Notes: generated by a model not told the origin, from the letters alone. 64,000 nucleotides of DNA from Pseudomonadales bacterium (GCA_020632255.1 JACKFX010000001.1:58734-122733); one strand, 5' to 3'. Counted from the stretch's first letter, positions 16,284 through 59,752 are shown. A program made the numbers and translations.

Positions 16284-16586
16284 ATGTAATTTATCTTGTG
16301 GGTCAACTGGGACTGCTCGCTTGCTGTGCAAGCTGTGCGATGCTTGTACTGTTTGTGGCTATACAATTACTACTCGCATGGCGAACCAAGGGTTTGATTC
16401 CAACAATTATCCCAGCATATAAAAAAACTAGCATGATGCTAGTTTTTTTATATGTGTGACACGAACTCTGATACGGAACTCCCCTCTTTCTCAAGTATGA
16501 ACCTAGTTTTTTCTTATTATGATTTGGATATTAGGTTGTTGCGGTGGAAGAATCGGTGGGTCAGATAGTGCTGTTATAATCTAGTT
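16284..16586 (+). repeat. cassette-boundary unit K1 (exact 16-nt tRNA-Lys 3' copy tgggtcaactgggact + module A + terminator + extended -10 promoter)
   Basis: About 99% identical to K2 over ~270 bp. Terminator aaaaaaactagcatgatgctagttttttt. TGtTATAAT at 16572-16580, 6 nt before the ATG at 16587. Confidence 0.7.
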
Positions 16587-17363
16587 ATGCAAGAAAAGGT
16601 TCAAATTAAAAACAAAAAAGGATTACTACTTTCAGCAGTAATAGAAAGACCTGATGATACAGGCAAGTATCCTACAGTTCTCTTTTTACACGGTTTTAAG
16701 GGATATAAAGAGGAAGCTACTTACACTGACTTAGCTCAGAGATTTCTTGAGCATGGCATAGCAAGTGTTTGTTTTGATGCTTCAGGATTTGGAGACAGTG
16801 AAGGCACGTTAGAAGACGACTACCGATTTTCTAATTATATTGATGACACAGAAGCTGTATTTACTTGGTTATTAAAACAAGACTTTGCGGATACAAACAA
16901 ACTCGGTGTTGTTGGACAAAGTATGGGAGGAGCTCAAACAATTCTTTTTGCTTCAAATCACCCTGAGTTAAAAATAGCTATTTCTATATCTCCACCAGAT
17001 AAAATAGGCACAGATGATGCTTTGGGTGCTGTTAAAGATCAATGGAAAAATATGGGATATCTTCAAGAGATGAGTTCCAGGTATGGTAAAGAAATAAAAA
17101 TTCCTTATGTATATCTTGAGGACGCAATGCAATATGACTTTGCTAAGTTGGCAGCAAATGTCCAGTGCCCTCTCGTAGTGGTTCTTGGTGAAAAAGATGA
17201 TATTGTTTTGCCAACTCAAACTGAGCGTGTTTTCAATGCTGCAAAGGAACCTAAAATTCTTTTACGTTTTGAGAACATGGATCACTTTTATAAGCGAGAT
17301 AAGAAAGTTTTGAATGAAGTTGGTAGAAAAATAACAAATATAATTGTTGAATATTTACATTGA
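16587..17363 (+). CDS. alpha/beta hydrolase (GQSMGG nucleophile elbow)
   Basis: HGFKGYKEE, the GxSxG motif GQSMGG, and a C-terminal His region. Confidence 0.6.
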   Translation: MQEKVQIKNKKGLLLSAVIERPDDTGKYPTVLFLHGFKGYKEEATYTDLAQRFLEHGIASVCFDASGFGDSEGTLEDDYRFSNYIDDTEAVFTWLLKQDFADTNKLGVVGQSMGGAQTILFASNHPELKIAISISPPDKIGTDDALGAVKDQWKNMGYLQEMSSRYGKEIKIPYVYLEDAMQYDFAKLAANVQCPLVVVLGEKDDIVLPTQTERVFNAAKEPKILLRFENMDHFYKRDKKVLNEVGRKITNIIVEYLH

Positions 17364-17373
17364 TATATCAATT

Positions 17374-17646
17374 AAAGTCGTCTTGTGGGTCAACTGGGAC
17401 TGCTCGCTTGCTGTGCAAGCTGTGCGATGCTTGTACTGTTTGTGGCTATACAATTACTACTCGCATGGCGAACCAAGGGTTTGATTCCAACAATTATCCC
17501 AGCATATAAAAAAACTAGCATGATGCTAGTTTTTTTATATGTGTGACACGAACTCTGATACGGAACTCCCCTCTTTCTCAAGTATGAACCTAGTTTTTTC
17601 TTTTTATGATTTGGATATTAGGTTGTTGCGGTGGAGGAATCGGTGG
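17374..17646 (+). repeat. cassette-boundary unit K2
   Basis: Near-identical to K1 (exact tRNA-Lys 3' copy at 17386-17401, module A, terminator, promoter segment). Confidence 0.7.
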
Positions 17647-18549
17647 TTAAACTGATTTCTTTTTATTTCTTGAAGCAATTTGAGCTCCTATTATTGCTAA
17701 AGTTCCACCAATTATAAATGGAATTGTAATTCTTTCACCCAAAATTAATGCTGCTAAGCCTATCCCAGTAATTGGCTGTAAATAAGTAAAGAGAGATGCT
17801 GTTATAGCTGAACCATGTTTCAAAGCATATTGATACGATAAATAGAAAATACCCGTACCGACTAAACCAATATACACACCACTTAAAATATGTATTGAGC
17901 TATACCCCGTTGGAAATCCGAAAGTCATGAATTCATACCCTACAAAAGGTAAGCTAATTAAGAAAGTAACTAGACTAAAATAAAAGGTTAACGCTATTGG
18001 AGAAACACTCCAAGATTTTTGTTTTTCTTTACTGATTAGTCCATAAGATAAGAAAGCTAATGAAGCTAGAAAAATAAGCAAGTTGCCAAATACAGACATA
18101 GAGCCAAATCCTTTATCTAATAAAGGCAAAAGAACAATTATTCCCACTCCAAAAAGACCAATTATTATGCCCACTAACTTTTGGCTATCAATCTTATGTT
18201 TTTTTATGAACATAACATAAATAGCTGTCATAGCTGGCACACCTGCATAAATTAATGGAGAGAATGATGCCTGTGTAAATTGAAGAGCAATAAATAATAA
18301 AATGGGGTTAAGAGATCCAATTATTGATACTGGTAGCAGATCTTTGAATTTTTGAATACTAAATTCTTTGGATTTGATTACCAACGGCAATAAAACTATT
18401 GATGCAAAAAAGAATCTAAGTGCTACAACTGTGAAAGGTTTGAAAAAAGATAGAGCAAATTTAGCTGCAACAGGTACTGAACCACCTGTAATTGCTGCAA
18501 TTATTATGAAAATTAGTGAAGACGAAAAGATTTTTGAATTTTTGTTCAT
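17647..18549 (-). CDS. EamA/DMT family transporter (10 TM)
   Basis: Two repeated 5-TM halves with the G-rich EamA signature. Confidence 0.55.
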   Translation of the reverse strand: MNKNSKIFSSSLIFIIIAAITGGSVPVAAKFALSFFKPFTVVALRFFFASIVLLPLVIKSKEFSIQKFKDLLPVSIIGSLNPILLFIALQFTQASFSPLIYAGVPAMTAIYVMFIKKHKIDSQKLVGIIIGLFGVGIIVLLPLLDKGFGSMSVFGNLLIFLASLAFLSYGLISKEKQKSWSVSPIALTFYFSLVTFLISLPFVGYEFMTFGFPTGYSSIHILSGVYIGLVGTGIFYLSYQYALKHGSAITASLFTYLQPITGIGLAALILGERITIPFIIGGTLAIIGAQIASRNKKKSV

Positions 18550-18618
18550 GAGAATATTCTACCATCTATGATATAAATTATAACTTGATAAGCTAATTGA
18601 GGAAATAAGACTATAAAT

Positions 18619-18791
18619 CAATCTAAGTTTTCTTGTGGGTCAACTGGGACTGCTCGCTTGCTGTGCAAGCTGTGCGATGCTTGTACTGTTTGTGGCTATA
18701 CAATTACTACTCGCATGGCGAACCAAGGGTTTGATTCCAACAATTATCCCAGCATATAAAAAAACTAGCATGATGCTAGTTTTTTTATATG
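18619..18791 (+). repeat. cassette-boundary unit K3, directly abutting tRNA-Lys
   Basis: Exact tRNA-Lys 3' copy at 18636-18651, module A and terminator. The promoter segment is replaced by the tRNA itself. Confidence 0.7.
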
Positions 18792-18865
18792 TGGGTCAAC
18801 TGGGACTCGAACCCAGGACACCCTGCTTAAGAGGCAGGTGCTCTAACCGACTGAGCTATTGACCC
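18792..18865 (-). tRNA. tRNA-Lys(CTT)
   Basis: Acceptor GGGTCAA/TTGACCC, D-arm GCTCAGTCGGTTAGAGC, anticodon loop CTCTTAA, T-arm CTGGGTTCGAGTCCCAG. Confidence 0.85.
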
Positions 18866-23486: not shown

Positions 23487-24312
23487 GAAGTTTTTTGCCC
23501 CCCCCTTGGAATGCATACCTATCCGGGGGGGCATACATATACATCATGGTTTGTTGTGAACATCCTAATTCGTTGCCCCCTCAGTCTTAGTGGCCAAAAT
23601 GCATGAGTACTGTGCTAGCTGTTATTTGTTACTAGATTATCTGAAGCGAGGGCTATGTTTTGATGAGTGAGTTGAAATATACCTGGCTTTGTCCTTTGGA
23701 TTATGCGCTGGAATACTTTCAGAACCCCATTCATATTTCTTATGGGTTTTTTAGTTAAGCGGTTTTGAACGTAGCATTTATAGTAGAATTTGTAGATATT
23801 TTCGCTTCTGTGATTCCACCCGGACTCACTTTCCCATAAATATATCAAAAGTTTGGGAGAAAAAGAAAAAGTGTACAAGTTGCACCCATTATCTCATGTG
23901 TGTAGCAGGTTAGAAGTTATTATGTAACCAATGCATATTATTGAGATGCTAACCAATTTAAGAATTCAGTTGCATTACTTGCGTTCGCTCTATTCATATA
24001 TTCATCTGGAATTTGAATAGTTTCACGAACTCCCCCAACTATATGACCTTCAACTGGCAAACCAGGGTCATTTTTTGATTCGTATGTAATTCTACTCGGA
24101 TCAATTGACAGTCTTTCTCCCAAACCAGTAGACAAAAGACTCATAATGCTGTCATAAGTTTTCTTCATATTTAGTTTTTATAAGTATCTTTAATAATGCA
24201 AATAGTATAGCACCTTTCAATTCTTTTTGTATTTTTTGGGTTCTACAGTTTTTTCACTCATCCCAATTTCAACACACTTCTAATCTGGAGTTCTGACTTT
24301 GCGGAGGTGGTG

Positions 24313-24330
24313 CTGTTGGACTGTGTTGAA
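24313..24330 (+). repeat. boundary motif, diverged copy (ctgttggactgtgttgaa)
   Basis: Immediately downstream of the HD-domain gene stop codon. Confidence 0.5.
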
Positions 24331-24335
24331 ATTAG

Positions 24336-24908
24336 TTATTTAACAAATACTTCTTTTAAAGCTTCATATCTATATCGAACATCTTCTCTTACATCGTCAA
24401 AGAAAATCTTTTTGTGAAAATCTCTATCTAATTTTTCGGTAACCCATTCTAAAAATTCATCATATGTTTTATTTTCAGGAATGTGCAACCAAGTAAATTG
24501 AACATAAAAATCAGTTGTAAGATGTGCTAAAGCATCAGCAGTTGCCATAACTTTTCCTTCAAGTGATTCAGGTAAGTGTCCATTTCTACAAGAATGAGGT
24601 TTAATTACTTCATTGAGGATTCTAGATATCTCTATTTCAGAGTAGTCAGCCTCTTTAAGAACTTCAGTTGCTTTTTGCATTGATATTTCCTCATGTGCTT
24701 CAGCATGTCGATATATAAAAGCATCTCCAAAATCGTGGAGCAGAGCACCTGCAACCGCTAAATCTTCGTTCGCTCCATGTATTTTAGCTAACTCTTCAGT
24801 CCTCGCTACAACAATAGGAACATGATTTTTCCACACCCATTGCCCAAACGGTTCTATACAATCTAAATATGCTCTTTCTACTAATTCATAGACCTTTTTA
24901 TGCTTCAT
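24336..24908 (-). CDS. HD-domain phosphohydrolase
   Basis: H…HD…D motif (ALLHDFGD). Confidence 0.6.
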   Translation of the reverse strand: MKHKKVYELVERAYLDCIEPFGQWVWKNHVPIVVARTEELAKIHGANEDLAVAGALLHDFGDAFIYRHAEAHEEISMQKATEVLKEADYSEIEISRILNEVIKPHSCRNGHLPESLEGKVMATADALAHLTTDFYVQFTWLHIPENKTYDEFLEWVTEKLDRDFHKKIFFDDVREDVRYRYEALKEVFVK

Positions 24909-25218
24909 TACTTATTCTTTCTTCTAAAGAGTTCATTGTTTGACCAAATTCTTTTTCTAAATCAATATTGTACTGATCCGCAAGAATAATAATTGACCAC
25001 AAGCAATCTGATAACTCATGTTTCAACTTTTCATCTACATCATCTATCTCACGTACTCCACTTTTAGCTTGGATTAGTTTAGATAAATCACCAACATCCC
25101 CTACAAAACCACTCATCAATTCTTGTGGAGTCCATTCTCTTCCATATTTTTCTTTTTCAAGTTGAAAATATTTTTGTCTAACTGCTAAAGCTTTTTGAAT
25201 TATTTGCTGAAATGTCAT
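24898..25218 (-). CDS. MazG-like nucleotide pyrophosphohydrolase
   Basis: ELMSGFVGDVGDL…ELSDCLWSIIILADQYNIDLE matches the MazG/EEXXE helical core. Overlaps the HD gene by 11 nt (operon). Confidence 0.5.
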   Translation of the reverse strand: MTFQQIIQKALAVRQKYFQLEKEKYGREWTPQELMSGFVGDVGDLSKLIQAKSGVREIDDVDEKLKHELSDCLWSIIILADQYNIDLEKEFGQTMNSLEERISNEA

Positions 25219-25324
25219 AGATTAGCTTGAGTTTTTACTCTTGGGAAAATCATATCAGTCGAGATGCCATTTAGTAAGCATGAGTTATAGTAATTGACAG
25301 TGTAGCTCTTAAAGTGGATGATTC

Positions 25325-26446
25325 TTAGGTTTGAGACTGACTAACCTCTAAAAGAATTGCCTTAATGGATTTGTTAAATTCTCTGATTAACCTTTTCGAT
25401 TTTTTCCTAAATTCTGGCTGTACATTCGATTTTCTTCGAATCGAATGCAACATCTTGTTGTAGGGAATTGATGCTGGATTATCATCAATTTGCCAAGTGC
25501 CTTGTATGAAATGACTTAGGACATATCGTTGATCATTGGTAGTATTTTGTATGGAGTATTCGGAAAGTAACTCTTCCCATGCGGTCATATGACTTTGCCA
25601 AGCGTCTGCCAATTTATGTTCAATAGCATCCCTTAATTCAACTGACTTTTGCACTGCCTTTATCGCAGTGCAAGCATTCATTTCGTATATGCATTTTCTG
25701 ATGTAATCATTAAACCCAGATGGATTTTGAGGATTAAATTGAACAATTGGAAAGCTCCTCCATTCAACTGCTAATTTTTGGTCCTCTGTTTCATGCAAAG
25801 GAGTTATTTTACTTTCTGATCGGTTGGAAAAATATGGAAAGTGTATCTGTGTGTTTCCGTCTTTCAATGGTGTGAATCGACGATGAATTTCACAGCAATC
25901 AGTTGAAGGTGCTGAAGTGGCACTATTAATGATGCCACTTGCTTCAAGAATTGCTCGAGCATCCATAACTTCTGTATGCTCTGGTGAAAGTTTAATTCCT
26001 CCATATGTTTCATGAGCTACGGTTTCACCTTCAAATGCACTATTTCTAATTGCAAATAGTAGAGAGCGAAGAAGAGTGATATTACTGTCTGCCGGATATG
26101 TGACCCCTTCTCTAATTTGATACATATGTTCATTTGGAACAAATGTATCATTAAATGTTGTTACATCAGCTTGTTTTCCAGCTAAAGTTTGAGCTTGCAA
26201 TAGGATATTTAAACGAGTACGACTTCCAGATAAACGTGCATCTCTATAAGCTTTATACATTGCTGGATCAGTGTATTCTATTTCCAAGCCGAATGTTGGA
26301 GTATATGGATTACTTCTTAAGTTGAGTTCTTGGTTCTTTTTTCTTATACGTACAAGAAAATCGTAGATTGCTTCGACTTCTTGATAAAATTTGGCACTTG
26401 AAACATAAGCCTTCTCATCACCCTTTCTATACAACCACCCATGCAA
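25325..26446 (-). CDS. hypothetical protein (373 aa)
   Basis: Long ORF with no recognisable motifs. Confidence 0.45.
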   Translation of the reverse strand: MHGWLYRKGDEKAYVSSAKFYQEVEAIYDFLVRIRKKNQELNLRSNPYTPTFGLEIEYTDPAMYKAYRDARLSGSRTRLNILLQAQTLAGKQADVTTFNDTFVPNEHMYQIREGVTYPADSNITLLRSLLFAIRNSAFEGETVAHETYGGIKLSPEHTEVMDARAILEASGIINSATSAPSTDCCEIHRRFTPLKDGNTQIHFPYFSNRSESKITPLHETEDQKLAVEWRSFPIVQFNPQNPSGFNDYIRKCIYEMNACTAIKAVQKSVELRDAIEHKLADAWQSHMTAWEELLSEYSIQNTTNDQRYVLSHFIQGTWQIDDNPASIPYNKMLHSIRRKSNVQPEFRKKSKRLIREFNKSIKAILLEVSQSQT

Positions 26447-26502
26447 AGTAGACTCTACTTTATGGTGTACTAATAAAAAATGAAAGGCAACGATATCTTG
26501 AG

Positions 26503-26784
26503 TTAGTAGATTTTTTCTAATGGAGATAGAGATTCTAAATCAATGTGACATTGTTCTAAAGCTCGAAGAAAAGCAGTATGATCTATTACGAAGTCGGTAT
26601 CAGGTCTGTTTATCATGCGCGCATTTCGATGTTTGGAAAGAGGGTGTTGATGACTTGCTTGGTTTGTATAGATTTTAACGATATCGATAGCATCTTGATC
26701 GATGAGGGGGATTTCCATCTTCTCTCGCCTCGTTAAAAATGCTGCATAAATTTCTTTTACTTGTTCTTTGTCTAAAAAAATCAT
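26503..26784 (-). CDS. hypothetical protein (93 aa)
   Basis: ORF only. Confidence 0.35.
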   Translation of the reverse strand: MIFLDKEQVKEIYAAFLTRREKMEIPLIDQDAIDIVKIYTNQASHQHPLSKHRNARMINRPDTDFVIDHTAFLRALEQCHIDLESLSPLEKIY

Positions 26785-26917
26785 GTAGTAATCCCGATAT
26801 ATGTATTAATCATTGAGTAATTACTCTCATTGTACATGAAATGTTGATTTTTTTGAAAGAATTGCCATAACATTGCTCACTAGCAGGTATGTTTTATTCG
26901 GTGACTTTTTTTTATGT

Positions 26918-26943
26918 ATGACACTGTTGGACTATGTTGGAAC
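26918..26943 (+). repeat. boundary motif copy (atgacaCTGTTGGACTATGTTGGAAC)
   Basis: Exact core ctgttggactatgttggaac. Confidence 0.6.
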
Positions 26944-27229
26944 TTCACTCTTTGAATATTCAGGTGAAAACCAAAATCTAAGTTCTGTCTTTGAAGAACA
27001 AAAAAATCTGGAACACCAGTGTCATCTATGTTTACAGAATTATTGAGATAAATATTTGAATAACCAAAAGATACTTTTTTCTTTTTAATAAGGAAGCCAT
27101 CTTCTGACTCAAAGTTGCATTAGAAGTATTCTTTACTTCTGAATTACAAGCACATTAAAATATATATTTAGGTCTAGACCCCAACCTTTTCCTTTGTTTT
27201 TTCTTGAGTAATCTGTAATAATACTATTT

Positions 27230-28516
27230 ATGATTGGTAATAATGGAGAAACTACTAGTACAGGTATAAAGGAAAGAAAAACTGAAATTCAGGATGATCT
27301 TTTGAAAGAACCGACCGACCCCGTTGTCTACTTTAGGAGCATGTTTGAGGATGAGCTTAACATTGAGCGTCAAAATGTAAAGGAAATGATATTGGCTGCG
27401 GACTCGATTGATAAAAAAATAAACCTCTTACGATCATGGCGAAAAAGATATGCGAATATTTCGCAGGTTACTGAAAATGTTGAAGATGATCCTACAATTT
27501 TAAATTTTTCCTTGTCACAGTACTCTGAATATATTCCATTTTATGAAGTCATTGAAAAAAAATATCCTTGGATTTCAGCTTTAGAAAAACAAGATAGGAT
27601 TCACCTAATGGATAGGCTGATAGAATCATTTTTAGCGAGTGGGAAGTTTTCAGAAAATTTTTTATCACAAATTCCTCTCCTTTTCAAAAAGTATAAATCA
27701 CTTAAAAGGAGATTAGATGTAATTGATGCAAACCCCAGTTTAGGTGATTCTGAGGCGAGAAAATTAAAAGCTCTAGCTAGATATGAAGAATTTTCGTATG
27801 GAGGAAGAAGTGTTTTTGATATAGCAAGATCTAATTATGATGCGGTAAATCTTTTATTAAATAGTGGAATTTTACAAAGATCTGAATTGGGAAGATTATT
27901 GTTAAATCGCATACCAAATCTTGAAATGTATGCTAGTCATTTTAGTAACCGTTGGGGGTATAAATATATTTTAAAAACAGGAGAGCTAACTTGTGCTGCA
28001 GAACTACAAGAAAACCCAAATATCCCTTTTAAAAAGTTTACTTGGGTGAGTGATGCTGCTTTGAGGAATGATAGTATGTGCTTTTTTTGTCTCGGAAGCC
28101 ATGATTCACGTGACTACGGATCCAGAAATGACTCTAGAAATGGCACACCATTTTATTTGGATATTGGCAATAACCCAGGCTTGTTAAATGGAGCTTTAGT
28201 TAGAGTTCACATAACTCAATTTGATAGTAATGAGAATATTTTACCAACTGAAGCGGAGCAAATGAGTTTAGATTCAGAACTATATCCAGCAACAAATTAC
28301 AAAGAAATATTAATCTTTCAGTTATACAGAAAGTTTATTGGGAATGAAGACATGACTTCTTATGAAGAGTTAATTTTCAGGTTGAAAAATGATAATGATG
28401 AAGAGTTGTTACGTTACATAGATGACAACCAAGATGATTTGGGTGTATATCTAGAAATAATTGTTCCATCGCATGTAAAATTGTGGGATTTGATTGTTGG
28501 CAGTCCAGTGAAATGA
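27230..28516 (+). CDS. hypothetical protein (428 aa)
   Basis: Long ORF with no recognisable motifs. Confidence 0.45.
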   Translation: MIGNNGETTSTGIKERKTEIQDDLLKEPTDPVVYFRSMFEDELNIERQNVKEMILAADSIDKKINLLRSWRKRYANISQVTENVEDDPTILNFSLSQYSEYIPFYEVIEKKYPWISALEKQDRIHLMDRLIESFLASGKFSENFLSQIPLLFKKYKSLKRRLDVIDANPSLGDSEARKLKALARYEEFSYGGRSVFDIARSNYDAVNLLLNSGILQRSELGRLLLNRIPNLEMYASHFSNRWGYKYILKTGELTCAAELQENPNIPFKKFTWVSDAALRNDSMCFFCLGSHDSRDYGSRNDSRNGTPFYLDIGNNPGLLNGALVRVHITQFDSNENILPTEAEQMSLDSELYPATNYKEILIFQLYRKFIGNEDMTSYEELIFRLKNDNDEELLRYIDDNQDDLGVYLEIIVPSHVKLWDLIVGSPVK

Positions 28517-28533
28517 TTTATTCCTCATTTGTG

Positions 28534-28548
28534 TGATGCCCGAGTTGG
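28534..28548 (+). repeat. copy of the tRNA-Gln 3' end (tgatgcccgaGttgg, 1 mismatch)
   Basis: Matches the reverse complement of the tRNA-Gln 3' terminus at 32498-32512. Confidence 0.6.
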
Positions 28549-28742
28549 TCCTCAGCCTTTGCTCTGGACATTTCCTCGCAGAAGTTCAATCAGATTCGCG
28601 ATTCGCTACTATTTACATCTAATTAAGGAAGTCACATGCACTAAGCAGGAAGTTCGCAGGTGCTCACTTCTTGCTGGCGCGACGGGTTCAAATCAATACT
28701 GACAGCCACAAAAAAAGATAGCATGCTGCTATCTTTTTTCAT

Positions 28743-28770
28743 GGATGGATCTATTGGACTATGTTGGAAC
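28743..28770 (+). repeat. boundary motif copy (ggatggatctattggactatgttggaac), preceded by terminator hairpin 28713-28740
   Basis: Core matches 18/20. Hairpin aaaaaaagatagcatgctgctatctttttt is upstream. Confidence 0.6.
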
Positions 28771-28789
28771 CATTCTACTGATGTAATTG

Positions 28790-29161
28790 TCACTCTGTTT
28801 TAGCGAGAAGTGTATATCTATTGTGTCCATCCTCATCAAACTTTTTTGCTTTTGTTTGTGCAACCAATTTTTCCCAAACAATTTGTGCTTCAGGTGAAAG
28901 ATTTGTGCCAGAGTACAATGGAAACCCATACTTCTGTAGAGCGACTTGGTTCATTAGGTATAGTCTCCTCGTGGCAAGATTTCTTTTTATATGGTTTGCG
29001 TCAGTCCATGTCCAGTCGACAAAAGGCTTGTTTCGAAAATATTTTTGAGTTTCTGGGTTATTTGAATTTACATTGAATCGTAATGTCGAACATCCAATAA
29101 TATTGTCATTTTCTATGTCAACAAAGTATGTTAGCTCATCTTCATCTCCAGTGTCATACAT
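28790..29161 (-). CDS. hypothetical protein (123 aa)
   Basis: ORF only. Confidence 0.4.
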   Translation of the reverse strand: MYDTGDEDELTYFVDIENDNIIGCSTLRFNVNSNNPETQKYFRNKPFVDWTWTDANHIKRNLATRRLYLMNQVALQKYGFPLYSGTNLSPEAQIVWEKLVAQTKAKKFDEDGHNRYTLLAKTE

Positions 29162-29414
29162 TTTTATTTGTCTAGCTAAATATGTCTCTGTTCCGTCTGG
29201 ATGATGGTATAACTGGAACTCTTCAAAGTTGCCAGTTTTATAATCATCTGGATGTACTAGTGAAGCACTTTTTTTTCGAAGTGTTGCATTACATGCTGAG
29301 GAACATCTGCAGGTGTGATCTGTATAGGTACAAAAGATCTGGATTCTAAAATGTACCTTGGTGCTTCAGTCATGTTCAAAGTATATAGTAAGATATATAG
29401 TTCTATCAACAAGT

Positions 29415-29440
29415 GATTGCTCTGTTGGACTATGTTGGAA
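29415..29440 (+). repeat. boundary motif copy (gattgctctgttggactatgttggaa)
   Basis: Exact core. Confidence 0.6.
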
Positions 29441-29467
29441 GTAATCTTTCAGCTTTTCAGAAGTCTT

Positions 29468-29938
29468 TCACTCAGGAATTTTCATTTCCATAGTTGTGAA
29501 CTTAATTCCATTTACTTCTTTTTCATCTGAAACACTTTTAAAACCCAATGCTTCATAGGCTGTAACTGAATTTGGTGAAGAGTGAACGGTAATCATCTTT
29601 ACGGAAGAATTGTTTTGCTTAATTAATTTTATTGCTTGTACAAGTAATTGTCGTCCAATTCCTCGCTTTTGGTGTTGGGGATCTACGAAAAGCATTGAAA
29701 GATGATTATTTGATCTTATTTCAATAATACCCACTAATTTTTTGTCAATTTCTGCTTTCAATATCCAATGATCTTTTTGCAGTTGTTCTTCAATTGCTTT
29801 AGGAGTTATATATTTATAAAATTCTTCATTCCCTTGGTCAGAATAAAAATTTGCAACAGAACTATCAAAAACCATTTTTATAAATTGCGATAATTTAGTT
29901 GATTCAGATAAAACTGCCTTCGATATTTTCATATACAA
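29468..29938 (-). CDS. GNAT family N-acetyltransferase
   Basis: QHQKRGIGRQLLVQAI motif A. Confidence 0.65.
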   Translation of the reverse strand: MYMKISKAVLSESTKLSQFIKMVFDSSVANFYSDQGNEEFYKYITPKAIEEQLQKDHWILKAEIDKKLVGIIEIRSNNHLSMLFVDPQHQKRGIGRQLLVQAIKLIKQNNSSVKMITVHSSPNSVTAYEALGFKSVSDEKEVNGIKFTTMEMKIPE

Positions 29939-30042
29939 AAATTATATCAGGTTAGAACTTAATCCAGAAGAGAATTTGAGGTGTACTAATGAGGTATAAA
30001 ACCACGAGAAGAATTAGATTGATATATAAAGCTATATTTTCA

Positions 30043-30071
30043 GGGATGGCACTGTTGGACTATGTTGGAAC
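30043..30071 (+). repeat. boundary motif copy (gggatggcactgttggactatgttggaac)
   Basis: Exact 28-mer consensus. Confidence 0.6.
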
Positions 30072-30113
30072 TAATTTAATGTTTAATACAAATTCAAGTG
30101 ATATACTTCAGAT

Positions 30114-30842
30114 ATGTCAAAAATCATACTCAAAAAATATGGAAGTGGGAACACAGTTCTTGTAGCATTTCCTGGCTGGACACACCCAATTGAAAATGAA
30201 AAAGAATTTCTCAATTTATTAAGTAAAAAGTATACTGTTTACTCAGTCTGTTTACCTGGGTATGTTAAAAATAAAAACTCAAATAAATTTAATGATTTTA
30301 AAAACCTTGTTAGTGACATAGATAAAGAAATTAAAAAGATTAAAAGTAAAAACATTGTGTATATTGGTTTTTCAATGGGATGTAGACTAATTATGGAATT
30401 AGAAAACAAATATCCAAATAAATATAAAAAAATATTTGTTGGTACTCCTGTTCACAACTATAGAATACCACTATGGGCAAATTTGCTATTACTTAATTCA
30501 AATATTATTAATATTTTAAGAAAATCAAAATCATTCAAACTATTTATTGTTAACAAAGCTCTTAAAAATATATTAAATGATAATAAAGCAGTATTTAATA
30601 AAAATAGGAATGTCACTCTAACTGGTGCATTTGATTCTTTAATTGGCTTAATAAAAAGCGACAATACTTTCATAAAATATAAAAAAACAACTAATTTTAT
30701 TTATGGAAATAATGACAAATACTTATATGAAGCAAAAAAATATAATTTAAAAAGTTTATATATCATTGAAAACGCAGACCACAACTGTGTAAGAAATCAT
30801 GAGGAAGAGGTTGTAAGAATAATTGATAGGCTTGTTAATTAA
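30114..30842 (+). CDS. alpha/beta hydrolase-like protein, strongly AT-rich (GFSMGC nucleophile elbow)
   Basis: GxSxG motif and C-terminal DH. Composition is markedly lower-GC than the surroundings. A diverged 5' fragment of a homolog lies at 49288-49383. Confidence 0.5.
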   Translation: MSKIILKKYGSGNTVLVAFPGWTHPIENEKEFLNLLSKKYTVYSVCLPGYVKNKNSNKFNDFKNLVSDIDKEIKKIKSKNIVYIGFSMGCRLIMELENKYPNKYKKIFVGTPVHNYRIPLWANLLLLNSNIINILRKSKSFKLFIVNKALKNILNDNKAVFNKNRNVTLTGAFDSLIGLIKSDNTFIKYKKTTNFIYGNNDKYLYEAKKYNLKSLYIIENADHNCVRNHEEEVVRIIDRLVN

Positions 30843-30887
30843 AAATAATAGTTTAATTAAGATATGATATATAAAGCTATATTTCAT

Positions 30888-30905
30888 TGATGCCCGACTT
30901 GGATT
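30888..30905 (+). repeat. exact 18-nt copy of the tRNA-Gln 3' end (tgatgcccgacttggatt) followed by a conserved module
   Basis: Identical to 32498-32515. Followed by ...ggctcgcgcaggtgcgctcgtgagcccgtcgcgaac. Confidence 0.65.
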
Positions 30906-31056
30906 CACGATTCGCTGCTATTTGTATCTACTGTAGGAAGCTCATATGCACTAGGGTGGCTCGCGCAGGTGCGCTCGTGAGCCCGTCGCGAACGATTTCA
31001 AATAAAATTCTGGAACATATACAAAAAAAACAAGCGGATGCTTGTTTCTTTTGTAT

Positions 31057-31083
31057 GATGGCTCTGTTAGACTATGTTGGAAC
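31057..31083 (+). repeat. boundary motif copy (gatggctctgttagactatgttggaac), overlaps the last 3 codons of the LMW-PTP gene, preceded by terminator 31026-31050
   Basis: Core 19/20. Confidence 0.6.
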
Positions 31084-31500
31084 TTCTCTACCTGCAATCT
31101 CTGATAACAATAGTTCTATTTCATCTCTAACTTGTCTGACACCATCCATGGAACTTTCATATGGATCAGGAACCCCTTTATAAAGTATGTTCAAGCCACT
31201 TGAAACAATAAAGTCAGGTAAAATGCTTGGATCACAGAGAACAATTATTGTAGTTATATCCCGAAGCATTTCTTGAACTAAAACTTTTATTTTTTGCTCA
31301 GAAATATCGATGCCTTTTTCAAACATTGCTTGAATAATATCTTCTCTTGGATGAAAATTATATTTTTCCCTATAGTCATTAATCCCAGCACTTTTTGCAG
31401 AATCTTCACCAAACCAATGTTTCCAAAAACCTTCTGCCATTTGGCTTCGACCAACGTTGCCCTCACAAACAAAAAGAACTTGTTCATTTTCAATTTTCAT
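31072..31500 (-). CDS. low-molecular-weight protein-tyrosine phosphatase / ArsC-like (CX5R P-loop VLFVCEGNVGRSQMAEG)
   Basis: C-E-G-N-V-G-R-S P-loop signature. Confidence 0.6.
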   Translation of the reverse strand: MKIENEQVLFVCEGNVGRSQMAEGFWKHWFGEDSAKSAGINDYREKYNFHPREDIIQAMFEKGIDISEQKIKVLVQEMLRDITTIIVLCDPSILPDFIVSSGLNILYKGVPDPYESSMDGVRQVRDEIELLLSEIAGREVPT

Positions 31501-31580
31501 AGGGATATTGTATCAGAGAAAATCAGACGAGGAGTTCTAACCGTACTAACGAGGTCAAAATTTTCTTGAGGGAAAAACGT

Positions 31581-31608
31581 GGATGGCACTGTTGGACTAT
31601 GTTGGAAC
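31581..31608 (+). repeat. boundary motif copy (ggatggcactgttggactatgttggaac)
   Basis: Exact 28-mer consensus. Confidence 0.6.
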
Positions 31609-31725
31609 TGGGCTTAGAAAAAACGGAGCTATTTATTAGCAAGATTTCTTATATGCATTCATAGAATGAACTAGAACTTATTTCTTAAAAATTACGACAA
31701 TTCTATCAAAATATCTTTCAAAAGC

Positions 31726-32313
31726 TTATTTTATTTCATGTCCGTTGATTTCAACTGAATTATTGCCAAGGCGTATGTCATAGTTCTTTGCAATTCCAAC
31801 GATACCTCGTATTGCTTGGTCAGGACCGCCGACTTTGATTTCACCAGCCCAAGGGAGCTCTTTTTCTAGCTTTTCATTTACATTGACTAGCTTGTATTTA
31901 CCATCTCTCCAAATGTATATTTTTGTTCTGCCTCCTTCAGCAATCTTTTCAAATGCGTTGTACACTGAATTGGCATTAAATTGTTCGATAAAACGATGAT
32001 AGTCTTTTTCAGTAGTATTTATTATTTCTTCAAGATCTGAGTCTAACAGTTGTTCTACTTGAGACAAAAAACCCATTTCAGTTGGATCTAGCAGACTGGT
32101 TCCCCTGATAAACTCATTAAAAAAATTGGCTTTTTGTTCTCCTAAAAGTCGAGATATGCGTTTGTATTGTGTGGTGACACGTTGTGCATACGAGCGTGCA
32201 TTTTCGTTTGAGTGGGGTGTAGATTCAATCATAGCTAAAGTATACAGTATTTTTCTAAGTTGGAATATCTTTTTTAAGTAATTGAGCCTGTAACCATGGA
32301 ATCCAGTGAGCAT
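31726..32313 (-). CDS. hypothetical protein (195 aa; real start may be internal Met)
   Basis: ORF only. Confidence 0.4.
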   Translation of the reverse strand: MLTGFHGYRLNYLKKIFQLRKILYTLAMIESTPHSNENARSYAQRVTTQYKRISRLLGEQKANFFNEFIRGTSLLDPTEMGFLSQVEQLLDSDLEEIINTTEKDYHRFIEQFNANSVYNAFEKIAEGGRTKIYIWRDGKYKLVNVNEKLEKELPWAGEIKVGGPDQAIRGIVGIAKNYDIRLGNNSVEINGHEIK

Positions 32314-32390
32314 TGCTCATACTTGGCATGGAGGGATCATAATACTCTTCCTCACTTTGTCCGCCGTGAAGAATGATTGCGTTTTTCATA
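32256..32390 (-). pseudogene. possible N-terminal fragment of an RBBP9/YdeN-type serine hydrolase (MKNAIILHGGQSEEEYYDPSMPSMSNAHWIPWLQAQLLKKD)
   Basis: 44-codon ORF in a different frame from the 195-aa ORF. ILHGG…HWIPWL matches the N-terminus of the Ser_hydrolase family, then terminates. Confidence 0.3.
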
Positions 32391-32499
32391 TGTAAATTAT
32401 ATCAGGTTAGAACTGTCGCTCGAAGGGAAATTAAGGTGTACTAATGTGGTAGAAAGCATAAAGAGATTTAGATTGATATATAAAGATATATTTTAAGTG

Positions 32500-32570
32500 A
32501 TGCCCGACTTGGATTCGAACCAAGATTGACGGCTTCAAAGGCCGCTGTCCTGCCATTAGACGATCGGGCA
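32500..32570 (-). tRNA. tRNA-Gln(TTG)
   Basis: U1:A72 acceptor TGCCCGA/TCGGGCA, anticodon stem gcggc/gccgt with loop CTTTGAA, T-arm CTTGGTTCGAATCCAAG. Confidence 0.85.
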
Positions 32571-43028: not shown

Positions 43029-43058
43029 TTGGCCCGGACTTTCAGTCCGGGCCATTAT
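43029..43058. terminator. hairpin ggcccggact-ttc-agtccgggcc
   Basis: 10-bp perfect stem between convergent genes. Confidence 0.5.
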
Positions 43059-43885
43059 TGTTTAATCCGATAACCATCGGGAGTGTTTTCAATGAGCTCT
43101 TCTGCTAATAAATCTCCAAGCACTTTCTCAAAGTACTTCTTCTCACCTTTAATTTCTTGTTTCAACTCAACTTCAGTCAGGAGTGGGTGTTGTGTCAGGT
43201 ATCGAATGATCTCTCCCCTCACCTGTCGCGGTGAGCCTTCAAATCGGGATTGTTTGGTGTGATGTTTACTATTTCGACTGGGATTTGGAAAGATTTTTTT
43301 CAGGTGGCTGCCATAGTCCATCAAGGCAGCGTACCACTCTCGTGGGTTATTGGTATAAATAGTTGCTTCAATGAGAGGTAGTAGCTCAGCATCTTCAACA
43401 TTGGTCCGTTTAGGAAAAAAATGATAAATATAGATGGAGCGAATATTTGTTTCAATCACAACTTCTGGATTATTAAAGGCAAAAGTACTGATTGCAGTGG
43501 CAGTGTATGGACCAATACCAGGCAGTTTTTGCAGCTCATCAGCAGTACTCGGAAAGGTGTCTTCAAGTTCAGTATGCACTTTTTGAGCAGTTTGCCATAA
43601 AAACTTGGCACGACGGTTATATCCCAACCCCTGCCATAAGGATAAAACTTCAGCGAGAGATGCTTGGGCCAAAACTTTAGTAGAGGGAAACGTTTCAAGA
43701 AATGCCAGGTATTTAGTGATGACGCGTTCAACTTGAGTTTGTTGAAGCATGAGTTCGGAGACAAGAATCTTATAGGGATCGGTGGTGTTTCTCCACGGCA
43801 GTTCATAGCGGCCGTGTTTTGAGTACCACCACAAGATGAATTGCTGGAAGTTGGCTACATCAGTTTTTTTCACTTTTCCAAGCAT
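43055..43885 (-). CDS. MutY-like HhH-GPD adenine DNA glycosylase, no Fe-S cluster cysteines visible
   Basis: WWYSKHGRYELPWR N-terminus, LPGIGPYTA HhH-GPD loop. The C-terminal region lacks the Cx6Cx2Cx5C motif. Confidence 0.55.
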   Translation of the reverse strand: MLGKVKKTDVANFQQFILWWYSKHGRYELPWRNTTDPYKILVSELMLQQTQVERVITKYLAFLETFPSTKVLAQASLAEVLSLWQGLGYNRRAKFLWQTAQKVHTELEDTFPSTADELQKLPGIGPYTATAISTFAFNNPEVVIETNIRSIYIYHFFPKRTNVEDAELLPLIEATIYTNNPREWYAALMDYGSHLKKIFPNPSRNSKHHTKQSRFEGSPRQVRGEIIRYLTQHPLLTEVELKQEIKGEKKYFEKVLGDLLAEELIENTPDGYRIKQ

Positions 43886-45214: not shown

Positions 45215-45523
45215 TCAAATCACTGCAATTATTCCTACAAATACTACTGATCGTCTTGAAGAATCTCTTTGTACGCTCTCTAATTTGAATGAACTCATTA
45301 TCGTCACTAGCTCTGTTTCCATCTTAAGTACCAATTGACCTGTGAATAATTTGGGTACAACTCTCTCAACTTGAGTCTGTTGGAGCATTAGCTCAGAAAC
45401 TAACACTTTGTAAGGATCTGTAGTCTTTCGCCATGGAAGTTCATATCGACCATGTTTTGAGTACCACCACAGGATAAAACGCTGGAAGTTATTACTATCG
45501 GTATTTTTCACTTTTCCAAGCAT
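45215..45523 (-). pseudogene. diverged duplicate of the first ~60 codons of the mutY-like gene
   Basis: MLGKVKNTDSNNFQRFILWWYSKHGRYELPWRKTTDPYKVLVSELMLQQTQVERV is about 85% identical to the N-terminus of 43055-43885, then diverges into nonsense. Confidence 0.5.
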
Positions 45524-58083: not shown

Positions 58084-58292
58084 GTCGGGGAAACAGGACT
58101 CTTCCCTCGCTCCGCTCAGTCCAGGGTGCTCAGATCTTTTTATGGAATAGTTATTTTATTTCGCACAGCGAACCAAAGCTTCATTCTATGGTTCACCCAA
58201 TAAACCAAAAAAACAGACTAAAAAGTCTGTTTCTCTGTTTTGTCGGAATTATGGAACGGTTTAATAACTCAGTTCCAGATCAAGAAACCTAT
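58084..58292 (+). repeat. Pro-array unit P3 (exact att gtcggggaaacaggact + module + terminator aaaaaaacagactaaaaagtctgttt + P2'-like element)
   Basis: Exact 17-nt tRNA-Pro 3' copy at 58084-58100. Confidence 0.6.
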
Positions 58293-58409
58293 AGAACTGG
58301 GATTATTTGATATACTTAGATATCTTAAACAAGAAAAACAGTACGAAAACGGAACTTAAGTATAATTTTTGAGAATAGAAACGACTACTCTACTCAGCAT
58401 ACTAGCCAA

Positions 58410-58967
58410 TTACCACAACTCATCACCAAAGAATAGTGGGCTACTTAAAAATTCATTTTTGTATTTTTGAGCTTTATCTGACACAAACTGCATAGCTACT
58501 CTTGATTTTGTTACTTTAGGATTAGACGCATCTCCTTCTAATACAGGAATATCATTAAAAATCCATCCACATTTTTGGTAAAAGGAACTATTTTCATCTT
58601 CACAGCTATAGAGAACAATATCTCTATCTACTTGTTGATCAATGTATTTCATTCCTTCTTGAACTATTTGAGTGCCAAATCCTCGCTTTCTGAATGATGG
58701 ATAGGTTAAGACACCTGTTAAACCATACAACGTAAACTCAGTACCTAAGTGTTTCATTACTCTTGAAACAACCTGAACATGTGAGATAAGCAGATTTCCA
58801 TGAGTTAAGAGTATTGAAATTGGATTATCTTCTGGTGTTGTGATCCAGTCGCGGTAGAGGTTCTCGTTCTCGAATCCTTCTGACCAAACAATCCGCTGAA
58901 AGGAAAGTATTTGGTAGAGCCATTTCTCAGGAAGATCGTTTTGTTTGTATATGAGTAGATCGGTCAT
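58410..58967 (-). CDS. GNAT family N-acetyltransferase
   Basis: FRKRGFGTQIVQEGMKYI motif A. Confidence 0.6.
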   Translation of the reverse strand: MTDLLIYKQNDLPEKWLYQILSFQRIVWSEGFENENLYRDWITTPEDNPISILLTHGNLLISHVQVVSRVMKHLGTEFTLYGLTGVLTYPSFRKRGFGTQIVQEGMKYIDQQVDRDIVLYSCEDENSSFYQKCGWIFNDIPVLEGDASNPKVTKSRVAMQFVSDKAQKYKNEFLSSPLFFGDELW

Positions 58968-58994
58968 GTTTCAATTATATCAGTAGAGGAATTA

Positions 58995-59333
58995 TTATGG
59001 AGTTAGTAACAGTGCCCAGGCAATCATACTTAAAATCCATACAAGCATTAAAAGGATATACTTATCTTGTTTGATAAAAGTTTTTCTTTTCCAATTTCGT
59101 ATGTGTATATATGGAATGAGAAGTTGGAAAAAAATGGCATTTATCCATCCCCAATGGTATATATAGATAAGCCATTCCGGTAAGGTTAATGTATCCTCAA
59201 CAATGTTTCCAATAGTATCCAGTGGAGTTGTAATTCCAAGCACATCTTGTGTTATATCTTTTATGAAATGAAAAAGTAGCACTACTGAAAGTAGAGAAAC
59301 AAACATTTTCCAGAGTGGGAAGATTTTTTGCAT
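58995..59333 (-). CDS. small membrane protein (3 TM)
   Basis: Hydrophobic ORF. Confidence 0.35.
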   Translation of the reverse strand: MQKIFPLWKMFVSLLSVVLLFHFIKDITQDVLGITTPLDTIGNIVEDTLTLPEWLIYIYHWGWINAIFFQLLIPYIHIRNWKRKTFIKQDKYILLMLVWILSMIAWALLLTP

Positions 59334-59397
59334 ATACCTCTTGAGTATAGCAGAGAGACAAGAAGTGTGTTTACTTTAGAAATAATTGTTGGTACAT

Positions 59398-59557
59398 GTC
59401 GGGGAAACAGGACTGCTCGCTTGCTTTGCAAGCTGCGCGATGCTCGTACTTGATGAGGTTGACACGATTTATAACTCGCATGGCGAACCATAGGTCTAGC
59501 CCATTGCTTGCCCCAATAAACCAAAAAAACAGACTAAAGAGTCTGTTTTTCTGCTTT
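59398..59557 (+). repeat. Pro-array unit P4 (exact att + module A: gctcgcttgctttgcaagctgcgcgatgctcgtact…actcgcatggcgaaccatagg + terminator)
   Basis: Module A is about 90% identical to module A of the tRNA-Lys array units. Confidence 0.65.
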
Positions 59558-59678
59558 GTCGGGGAAACAGGACTTCTCGGGCTGCGCCCTGCGAGGCCTT
59601 CGGCAGCGAACCAAAGCTTGACTCCAAAGCTTCATCAACACACAAAAAAACCCACCTAAAGGTGGGTTTTTTTATGTG
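59558..59678 (+). repeat. Pro-array unit P5 (exact att + module B: tctcgggctgcgccctgcgaggccttcggcagcgaaccaaag + terminator), abuts tRNA-Pro
   Basis: Module B matches module B of Lys-array unit K0 (15146-15210). Confidence 0.65.
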
Positions 59679-59752
59679 TCGGGGAAACAGGACTCGAACC
59701 TGCGACCTCACGGTCCCAAACCGCGCACTCTAGCCATCTGAGCTATTCCCCG
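59679..59752 (-). tRNA. tRNA-Pro(TGG)
   Basis: Acceptor CGGGGAA/TTCCCCG, anticodon stem cgcgg/ccgtg with loop TTTGGGA, T-arm GCAGGTTCGAGTCCTGT. Confidence 0.85.

Follow-up and report, generated by a model that had tools for sequence, protein, structure and literature searches.

Streptococcal cis-mobilizable elements (CIMEs) are integrase-less units, bounded by att sites and arranged in tandem with elements that use the same site, which take their integrase from another element; they are decayed remnants of integrative and conjugative or integrative and mobilizable elements (ICEs or IMEs), with true attL and attR copies and an autonomous partner. The pdif modules of Acinetobacter plasmids and the integrative mobile elements exploiting Xer (IMEX) are small recombinase-less modules with short conserved sites, served by a host tyrosine recombinase; pdif and dif sites measure 28 bp and consist of inverted XerC and XerD arms, and successive pdif sites alternate in orientation. 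Cassette arrays of another kind are the sedentary chromosomal integrons and the clusters of attC sites lacking an integrase (CALINs), in the sense of IntegronFinder (PMC4889954). Here we set beside these systems an array of nine site-bounded units next to a tRNA-Gln gene in a 64-kb stretch of DNA (hereafter the window; GCA_020632255.1 JACKFX010000001.1:58734-122733), which was searched for motif copies, tRNAs, and open reading frames (ORFs). We consider it probable, with moderate confidence, that this array was built by site-specific accretion of integrase-less, self-promoted cassettes at the tRNA-Gln 3′ terminus, carried out by a tyrosine recombinase acting in trans.

Judging by the homologues of the neighboring VIT1 gene, the source organism is a Pacebacteria-like member of the Candidate Phyla Radiation (CPR, or Patescibacteria), uncultured and ultra-small. 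CPR genomes are tiny and harbor few recognized mobile elements, and how they exchange accessory genes is poorly understood; our search of the literature on integrons and integrative elements in Patescibacteria and CPR found no description of arrays such as this one.

The junction site and the tRNA-Gln 3′ terminus

The array extends from 24313 up to the tRNA gene at 32499-32570, in units of 0.5-2.6 kb. A 19-mer, CTGTTGGACTATGTTGGAA, recurs in it seven times with no more than two to three mismatches, always on the + strand. The copies span 24313-31607 only (Table 1), with none elsewhere in the 64 kb and an expectation of 0.02 for shuffled sequence, and each occupies an intergenic spacer, just as the original prediction had described. 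A dispersed generic repeat, of the repetitive extragenic palindromic (REP) or miniature inverted-repeat transposable element (MITE) type, finds no support in these 64 kb: the copies keep to a single strand and sit at unit boundaries, and among 185,579 species genomes the exact 19-mer was found in one stretch of one other genome, which is again a tRNA-Gln array (L001/L018, contig CAZKVV010000006.1).

The full site, of which the 19-mer forms the core, measures ~29 nt (TGATGGCA-CTGTTGGACTATGTKGGAAC-T), and the sequence flanking it is not conserved. In an alignment of 24 distinct copies from eight sources, the information content is ~0.3 bit outside the site, reaches 1.5-2 bits across exactly these ~29 nt, and falls abruptly on both sides, a sharp-edged profile as expected of a protein recognition site and not of a duplicated region. 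The site consensus, TGATGGCACTGTTGGACTATGTTGGAAC, consists of direct repeats (TGTTGGA twice) and shows no dyad, and its orientation is constant whatever direction the neighboring genes run, which argues for a role at the DNA level.

What does this site represent? Its relation to the tRNA can be read from two kinds of junction. In the first, a homologous segment ...GATTGATATATAAAG.TATATTTT.AG leads into GGATGGCACTGTTGGA... at 30044, but into TGATGCCCGACTTGGA..., the 3′ end of tRNA-Gln, at 32499. In the second, a unit of tRNA fragment, module, and terminator is followed by TGATGGCTCTGTTAGACTATGTTGGAAC at 31056 in the window and by the true tRNA-Gln in a relative (L006). Since the motif and the tRNA end occupy equivalent positions at both kinds of junction, the motif is a stand-in for the tRNA end at internal junctions. 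The tRNA-Gln 3′ terminus, which reads TGATGCCCGACTTGGATTCGAACC on the + strand, would be the attB-like anchor of the array. Moreover, the first five nucleotides of the site are those of the local tRNA terminus, being TGATG in the window and in arrays L018 and L012 (tRNA ...TGATGCC), and TGATC in array L002, whose tRNA-Gln(ctg) ends ...TGATCCC. The identity between site and tRNA terminus ends at the sixth base; a block of identity this short would be the expected trace of the overlap region in a tyrosine recombinase reaction.

The 20-nt core, for its part, resembles a tRNA T-arm (TTGGA...TTSGAAC) with five extra bases, although, with halves that are direct repeats, it cannot fold into one. As had been predicted, the motif has no match among the 3′ ends of the window's 10 tRNAs. 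The 3′ end of another tRNA or tmRNA was likewise rejected as its source: ARAGORN and Rfam are empty at these positions, the TCCAAC halves of the reverse complement are direct, not inverted, and the species-genome scan gave no tRNA matches. The original prediction had further proposed that the motif might be the att core of a second element family, and this proposal has gained from the replacement of the tRNA end, the covarying pentamer, the occurrence in other lineages, and the cassette swaps between strains described below; since no recombinase has been identified, its function as an att core is something we infer.

Considering the likeness to the T-loop and to the acceptor 3′ strand, it is conceivable that the site acts instead in the form of RNA, as the − strand 3′ end of cassette transcripts (GUUCCAACAUAGUCCAACAGUGCCAUCA), mimicking the tRNA-Gln 3′ end as a processing or stability signal. 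Its location just downstream of − strand gene stop codons, one of which it overlaps at 31072, would suit such a role. We nevertheless regard this as very improbable: no T-arm hairpin is present, the TCCAAC halves being direct repeats, the site and segment together carry no folding signal (z +1.1 to +1.2), two copies come after gene-less modules, and the site is 5′ of and antisense to both + strand genes.

A conserved segment accompanying the motif, as originally predicted, is real at 29939-30043 and 32394-32498 (82% and 77% identity), and partial copies exist at 30865-30884, 26459-26485, and 31501-31580. At the − strand end of the segment, an extended −10 element (TGATATAAT or TGATACAAT) stands 7-8 nt before the cassette ATG; in the segment at 32394-32498 it reads TGATATAAT and precedes the ATG of the adjacent ORF by about 4-8 nt, and the + strand hydrolase has an extended −10 copy of its own, TGATATACT. 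In the GNAT, hydrolase, and low-molecular-weight phosphotyrosine phosphatase (LMW-PTP) genes, TGnTAnnnT precedes the ATG by 4-12 nt. Because the same element is found 4-12 nt before the start codon in 14 of the 59 ORFs of the window (e.g., 29933-29950, 31501-31520, and 30095-30113), it is likely a general leaderless-type promoter of this genome, and its frequency implies, as judged from promoter positions, that leaderless or near-leaderless mRNAs may be widespread. Equipped with promoters of their own, the cassettes are complete transcription units, unlike integron cassettes.

These promoters bring up a second alternative, namely that the motif, as the direct repeat TGTTGGA-N3-TGTTGGA, is a transcription factor binding site that co-regulates the accessory genes from upstream of the next − strand promoter. 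The direct repeat has a period of 10 bp, every unit has its own promoter, and in arrays L002 and L004 the site is 35-50 nt upstream of the extended −10. Yet site and promoter are anywhere between ~40 and more than 140 nt apart, the orientation is unchanged where the neighboring gene is inverted (27230 and 30114, both +), and two copies come after the terminators of gene-less units. A regulatory site would also leave the tRNA-end equivalence, the covarying pentamer, and the strain breakpoints unexplained, and we deem it improbable.

Cassette exchange and the proposed reaction

The window's order of VIT1, tRNA-Gln, 195-aa gene, phosphatase, hydrolase, GNAT, and 123-aa gene recurs in contigs of at least seven sequencing runs. 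Two contigs depart from it, so that the comparison of cassette content at tRNA-Gln among populations, which had been suggested from the outset, reveals swapped cassettes with breakpoints at the site. One of them (L031) is 99.8% identical to window positions 29413-30765 and diverges exactly at the G of the opening GTGATTGCT of the site at 29414; leftward of this breakpoint is a different cassette with a canonical segment. The other (L030) is 97.7% identical to positions 28754-30073 and diverges directly after the site at 30044-30071, where a 167-aa gene and a LOG/lysine-decarboxylase-like gene, with a copy of the site between them, take the place of the hydrolase cassette. The GNAT cassette recurs in the L018 array with 85% nucleotide identity and other neighbors. 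Taken together, the strain breakpoints and the recurring GNAT cassette mark the cassette as the unit of variation and the site as the place where variation starts and ends. Two GNAT homologues (P0126 and P0127) are located outside any array; the cargo gene is therefore not tied to the site.

The association with tRNA-Gln reaches beyond closely related strains. In all four lineages of known context (the window, L001/L018, L002, and L012), the array adjoins tRNA-Gln, always in one relative orientation, with flanks that are otherwise unalignable across lineages. The tRNA gene is intact beside the array in the window, L012, and L002, and is cut by the contig end in L018, which begins inside tRNA-Gln and continues with at least nine further segment-plus-site copies over 8.6 kb, one or two genes lying between neighboring copies. 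Three metagenome matches, L002 (30% GC, tRNA-Gln(ctg), two sites), L003, and L004 (one site each), preserve the 21-nt core perfectly in unrelated surroundings. A further match, on a 315-kb contig (L005), was discarded as a chance match within a coding region of 47% GC. The backbone of LytR ... tRNA-Gln, VIT1, VKOR/DHODH, methyltransferase, and radical SAM is conserved in L006 and L012, but what precedes the tRNA does not agree: in L012 it is one cassette made of the site, an APH gene, and a ~85-nt segment, and in L006 it is a module unit only. The number of motif cassettes thus ranges from at least nine in L018 and at least seven in the window to one in L012 and none in L006.

The same comparisons bear on an explanation that dispenses with any dedicated recombinase. 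Under it, the junction repeats, comprising the 29-nt site and a segment of up to ~105 nt, would provide portable homology through which RecA-dependent recombination with DNA acquired from relatives adds, removes, and shuffles cassettes, the repeats themselves having spread by duplication downstream of the tRNA. The segments do show 75-85% identity across ~100-140 nt, both within an array and from one array to another, there is no recombinase in cis, and the exchange of mid-segment plus neighboring cassette in L030 versus the window resembles gene conversion. However, L002, L003, and L004 share only the ~21-29-nt site, with the segment absent or unrelated, a length too short for efficient homologous recombination and yet conserved base for base. 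The conservation profile is sharp-edged, the pentamer follows the local tRNA terminus, and neither the one fixed orientation of the site nor its tRNA-Gln location in four lineages would be explained. As the sole account we therefore think it unlikely; homologous exchange between junction repeats is the main rival and probably also contributes, and gene conversion between these repeats probably acts beside any site-specific reaction.

How might site-specific accretion at the tRNA terminus proceed? The mobile unit, written on the + strand, would consist of the 29-nt site, one to four genes, and the promoter-bearing segment. Upon circularization its ends would join to give segment-TGATG-motif, an attP-like sequence. 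A tyrosine-type recombinase encoded elsewhere would then exchange strands within the ~5-nt TGAT(G/C) block common to the cassette site and the tRNA gene's final bases (positions 71-73 plus CA), leaving the tRNA intact and placing the newest cassette next to it. The 20-nt core (TGTTGGA-N3-TGTTGGAAC), similar to the TTGGA-TTCGAAC T-arm of the tRNA, may serve as the core-type binding site of the recombinase. The units of tRNA fragment, ~105-nt module, and bidirectional terminator would instead have used a longer identity block (19 nt) with a crossover in the T-loop and would belong to a different element family.

Several observations weigh against this scheme. First, Pfam finds no recombinase in the array or its flanks (17.6-35.5 kb), nor is there one in or beside five arrays (the window, 15 kb of L018, L002, L003, and L004; ~35 kb in total) or in the L012 cassette. 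The window's only tyrosine recombinase is 23 kb away in a separate island, and the ACWTCGTAT of that island's repeats is absent from the Gln junctions. Second, three viral-contig scans and BLAST against phages and plasmids yielded no autonomous element bearing the motif, and no circular cassette or empty site was observed. Third, the symmetry of the site is direct rather than inverted, which is unusual for a simple tyrosine-recombinase core, and the far side of the proposed crossover lacks sequence conservation. Finally, in the L030 comparison the mid-segment was replaced as well, indicating that homologous recombination or gene conversion between junction repeats contributes.

The content of the units corresponds only in part to the nine single-gene cassettes envisaged by the original prediction: nine site-bounded units do stand beside the tRNA, but one comprises four genes, and two (28534-28742 and 30888-31055) are without any. 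Eight of the 10 array genes are on the − strand, co-oriented with the tRNA, as are ~15 of 16 genes in L018 and all of those in L002. Pfam agrees with the predicted cargo of HD plus MazG, GNAT, alpha/beta hydrolase, LMW-PTP/ArsC (as LMWPc), and unknowns; four cassette proteins have no match in Pfam, NCBIfam, PADLOC, or PHROGs. Inside the four-gene unit (24313-26915) the internal junctions are decayed, with a segment remnant at 26459-26485. The 44-codon ORF at 32258-32389 begins just downstream of the conserved promoter and probably represents a Ser_hydrolase-like N-terminus in truncated form. A 29-nt remnant (27006-27034) downstream of the 26916 motif, with 76% identity to the start region of the 123-aa gene (29138-29166), suggests a decayed earlier copy of that cassette.

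Table 1. Features of the tRNA-Gln array in window coordinates; junction sites are given by their 28-mers, with the start of the 19-mer in the last column.
Feature	Coordinates	Strand	Remarks
tRNA-Gln(ttg)	32499-32570	−	ARAGORN; Rfam 62 bits
Junction site 1	24305-24332	+	19-mer at 24313; most distal and most degenerate copy, GGTGGTGCTGTTGGACTGTGTTGAAA
Junction site 2	26916-26943	+	19-mer at 26924
Junction site 3	28743-28770	+	19-mer at 28751; module and terminator before it
Junction site 4	29414-29441	+	19-mer at 29422; GTGATTGCT plus motif; strain L031 diverges from the first G
Junction site 5	30044-30071	+	19-mer at 30052; perfect 28-mer; strain L030 diverges directly after it
Junction site 6	31056-31083	+	19-mer at 31064; overlaps LMW-PTP stop codon; module and terminator precede
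Junction site 7	31581-31608	+	19-mer at 31589; perfect 28-mer
Conserved ~105-nt segment abutting tRNA	32394-32498	+	carries GATTGATATATAAAG
Conserved segment of GNAT cassette	29939-30043	+	homologous to 32394-32498, then motif in place of tRNA
Distal four-gene unit	24336-26784	−	HD 24336-24908; MazG 24898-25218; 373-aa unknown 25325-26446; 93-aa unknown 26503-26784
Cassette gene, 428 aa, no family match	27230-28516	+	orientation opposite to most
Gene-less unit, more diverged	28534-28742	+	tRNA-Gln 3′ fragment, ~45-nt insert, module, terminator
Cassette gene, 123 aa, unknown	28790-29161	−	
GNAT acetyltransferase cassette gene	29468-29932	−	
Alpha/beta hydrolase cassette gene, 28% GC	30114-30842	+	orientation opposite to most; own extended −10
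Gene-less unit	30888-31055	+	tRNA-Gln 3′ fragment 30888-30906, ~105-nt module, bidirectional terminator 31028-31047
LMW-PTP/ArsC-like cassette gene	31072-31500	−	
tRNA-proximal unit	31726-32389	−	195-aa unknown ORF 31726-32313; 44-codon ORF 32258-32389

Gene-less units and candidate recombinases

Copies of the tRNA-Gln 3′ end had been predicted at 28534 and 30888. The copy at 30888-30906 is exact over 18-19 nt and identical through the T-loop, and the one at 28534-28548 is imperfect, so that the claim holds fully for the former (an exact 18-mer) and less well for the latter. Both introduce gene-less units (28534-28742 and 30888-31055) that are homologous to each other and to the L006 unit abutting the true tRNA-Gln. 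The module they share, described beforehand as structured, is thus a real homologous element, but it folds no better than shuffled sequences (minimum free energy z −0.4 to +1.1), and covariation among its three sequences is weak. A hairpin with a conserved CACCTG loop, whose stems differ in two versions, is suggestive, in three sequences only. Neither the module nor the junctions match a known RNA family in Rfam, at gathering thresholds or at E-values up to 5. The statement that the motifs are often preceded by a terminator hairpin did not survive either, as one precedes only two of the seven (28705-28740 and 31028-31047).

Two further arrays in the window contain units of this construction. 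The tRNA-Lys(ctt) array (16298-18865) is composed of units with an 18-nt tRNA-Lys 3′ fragment, a ~120-nt module, and a bidirectional terminator, in three near-identical copies at 16298, 17385, and 18635. Units 1 and 2 each lead into a conserved pseudo-site segment of 105 nt (TGTG-ACACGAACTCTGATACGGAAC...) and a cassette, the cassettes of this array encoding a hydrolase (16587-17363) and an EamA transporter (17647-18549). The tRNA-Pro(tgg) array (58084-59752) has three differing module units with the tRNA-Pro 3′ 18-mer at 58084, 59398, and 59558, the second with a module homologous to that of tRNA-Lys, and cassettes for a GNAT (58410-58967) and a membrane protein (58995-59333). Read in the sense of the tRNA, the Lys and Pro units begin with the terminator, continue with ~30-45 nt ending in GGTTCG and a GC-rich insert of 20-75 nt, and reach the tRNA fragment from the T-loop onward. 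What follows the unit in these two arrays is either the tRNA or a pseudo-site, which has 4-6 nt in common with the tRNA terminus and includes GGAAC. In place of this GGTTCG, the Gln modules have CGTTCG, CGTTCA, or CGTCG, likewise in tRNA sense. The Lys and Pro arrays therefore show both kinds of junction seen in the Gln array, and their GGAAC pseudo-site parallels the Gln motif. We read the modules as putative att-derived, gene-less members of an element family that targets the T-loop; the motif cassettes would be a second family, recombining at the very 3′ terminus.

If a recombinase acts in trans, where could it come from? Beside tRNA-Lys in L012 there is a classical 359-aa integrase; the clade thus has autonomous tRNA-targeting elements, which could be a source of integrases in trans. 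In the same contig, at 5000-5373, a second T-arm-like sequence (GGGTATCGAACCCAGG) is found just beside the tRNA-Lys 3′ end, along with further tRNA-like stretches without an ARAGORN call.

The tyrosine recombinase of the window itself (270 aa, 234-1046, − strand) is part of an integron-like island at 1-5776 that is separate from the Gln array. This island is bounded by a cut tRNA-Leu(tag) 3′ end (64-78), with copies at 216-230 and 5762-5776, and has a perfect 64-nt repeat (166-229 = 5712-5775). It contains four + strand ORFs (an ADP-ribosyltransferase, an HNH protein, and two unknowns), each after a ~167-nt repeat that has an invariant 89-nt core with GTTAGGC...GCCTAAC in it, folds strongly (z −5 to −7), and includes ACATCGTAT twice per copy. 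Just upstream of the recombinase gene, at 1100-1112 on the − strand, is an exact 13-nt loxP arm, ATAACTTCGTATA, followed by ACATACAA; a related sequence, ATTACTTCGTATC, occurs at 195-207 and 5741-5753 (− strand), within both 64-nt repeats at the island ends. These loxP-arm-like sequences, together with the ACATCGTAT of the ~167-nt repeats, are probably binding sites of the 234-1046 recombinase.

The best matches of this recombinase are to integron-integrase and XerA/IntI models, with 218 bits against TIGR02249 (cut-off 265, the match being split in two stretches) and 215 against NF040815 (cut-off 220). Could the Gln array then be a true integron, or a CALIN, served by this enzyme? The best NCBIfam match to an integron integrase model would fit, as would the small, mostly co-oriented cassettes and a cargo of GNATs, toxin-antitoxin genes, hydrolases, and unknowns that is typical of integrons. 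The junction site, however, does not fold and has no RYYYAAC...GTTRRRY pair; an attC-like folded site was rejected given z values of +1.07 and +1.18 for segment plus motif as single-stranded DNA (two strands) and no inverse core on reading. Furthermore, the cassettes have promoters, and the recombinase scores under both curated cut-offs and resides in another island with structured ACWTCGTAT repeats of its own that the Gln junctions lack. We consider this possibility largely refuted and give it very little credence. With ACWTCGTAT missing from the Gln junctions, the 234-1046 enzyme does not suggest itself as their catalyst, a role for which its separate island and different repeat motifs likewise give no support.

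The family of the 270-aa recombinase comprises 6199 proteins at E ≤1e-40. Its 120 best homologues (P0133-P0252) are 72-100% identical and include metagenome-assembled genomes (MAGs) labeled Moranbacteria, Portnoybacteria, Gracilibacteria, and Shapirobacteria; the homologues likewise adjoin a class-II tRNA with arrays of small genes. As this conservation is far above that expected for vertical descent, the recombinase element probably spreads horizontally across the CPR. The MAGs with the window's recombinase (100% identical protein) and those with the L001 array carry a Pseudomonadales label. Such labels are probably taxonomic errors, considering that gene content, synteny, and homologues point to Pacebacteria/Microgenomates (CPR).

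Elsewhere in the window, a 102-aa ORF (45215-45523) is a truncated duplicate, at a distance of ~1.3 kb, of the N-terminus of an HhH-GPD (MutY/EndoIII-like) gene (43055-43885); the two nearly agree over the first ~55 residues of the ORF, which is probably a pseudogene fragment.

Comparison with known systems

The Gln locus is a compact and well-delimited capture site, with a ~29-nt site common to several lineages and with cassette differences between co-occurring strains. Many contigs end in the array, which explains the assembly breaks at this locus in these genomes. Should site-specific accretion at the tRNA terminus prove true, integron-like cassette economies would be possible on the basis of tRNA-end integration without a linked integrase, the 29-nt site would offer a sequence handle for cataloguing the flexible gene pool in metagenomes, and the recombinase and its site would form a pair with a short asymmetric target, possibly useful as a tool. 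Another, more tentative idea is that we are looking at an independently evolved CPR analogue of the integron, in which tRNA 3′ termini (Gln, with Lys and Pro in parallel) capture leaderless units through a ~29-nt pseudo-tRNA cassette site and a shared recombinase acting in trans, possibly the CPR-wide conserved 270-aa IntI/XerA-like enzyme or another one. If true, reduced genomes would have a dedicated platform for the exchange of accessory genes.

Among the systems with recombinase-less units, CIMEs have a partner element, whereas the Gln array has no visible partner and its units look like a dedicated family of minimal cassettes rather than decayed remnants. The Gln site also differs from those of pdif modules and IMEX in its direct repeats, its single orientation, and its tie to a tRNA gene. 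Cumulative GC skew rises monotonically across the window; with no switch in skew, the array is not at the terminus and is not dif-like.

The tycheposon islands of Prochlorococcus (bioRxiv 10.1101/2020.12.28.424599) and the ssrA islands of Dehalococcoides (PMC3146451) are alike in that successive integrations at one tRNA or tmRNA 3′ end push older units outward, with partial tRNA copies between units, adaptive cargo, and hotspots of strain variation. Their units, in contrast, are kilobases long, at least some with a tyrosine recombinase and replication or hallmark genes, and their att repeats consist of stretches of tRNA tens of nucleotides long, whereas at seven of the nine junctions of the Gln array the repeat is a pseudo-site that has 5 nt in common with the tRNA. 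When the array is viewed as a tandem island, a tRNA 3′-fragment repeat is present at two of nine junctions (28534 and 30888), and the other seven share TGATG and the T-arm-like resemblance.

Finally, the likeness to chromosomal integrons on which the original prediction had remarked is functional. Like the Gln array, integrons contain small, mostly single-ORF, mostly co-oriented cassettes with a repeated recombination site between them, vary among strains, and accept GNATs, toxin-antitoxin genes, hydrolases, and unknowns as cargo, with addition at one fixed end, which in the Gln array is presumed. In construction the resemblance does not hold. The Gln array has no adjacent IntI and is anchored at the 3′ end of a tRNA gene, not at attI; its site is a sequence-conserved duplex-type element of ~29 nt, not a structure-conserved attC hairpin; and its cassettes, rather than being promoterless under a common promoter (Pc), each carry a leaderless-type promoter of their own.

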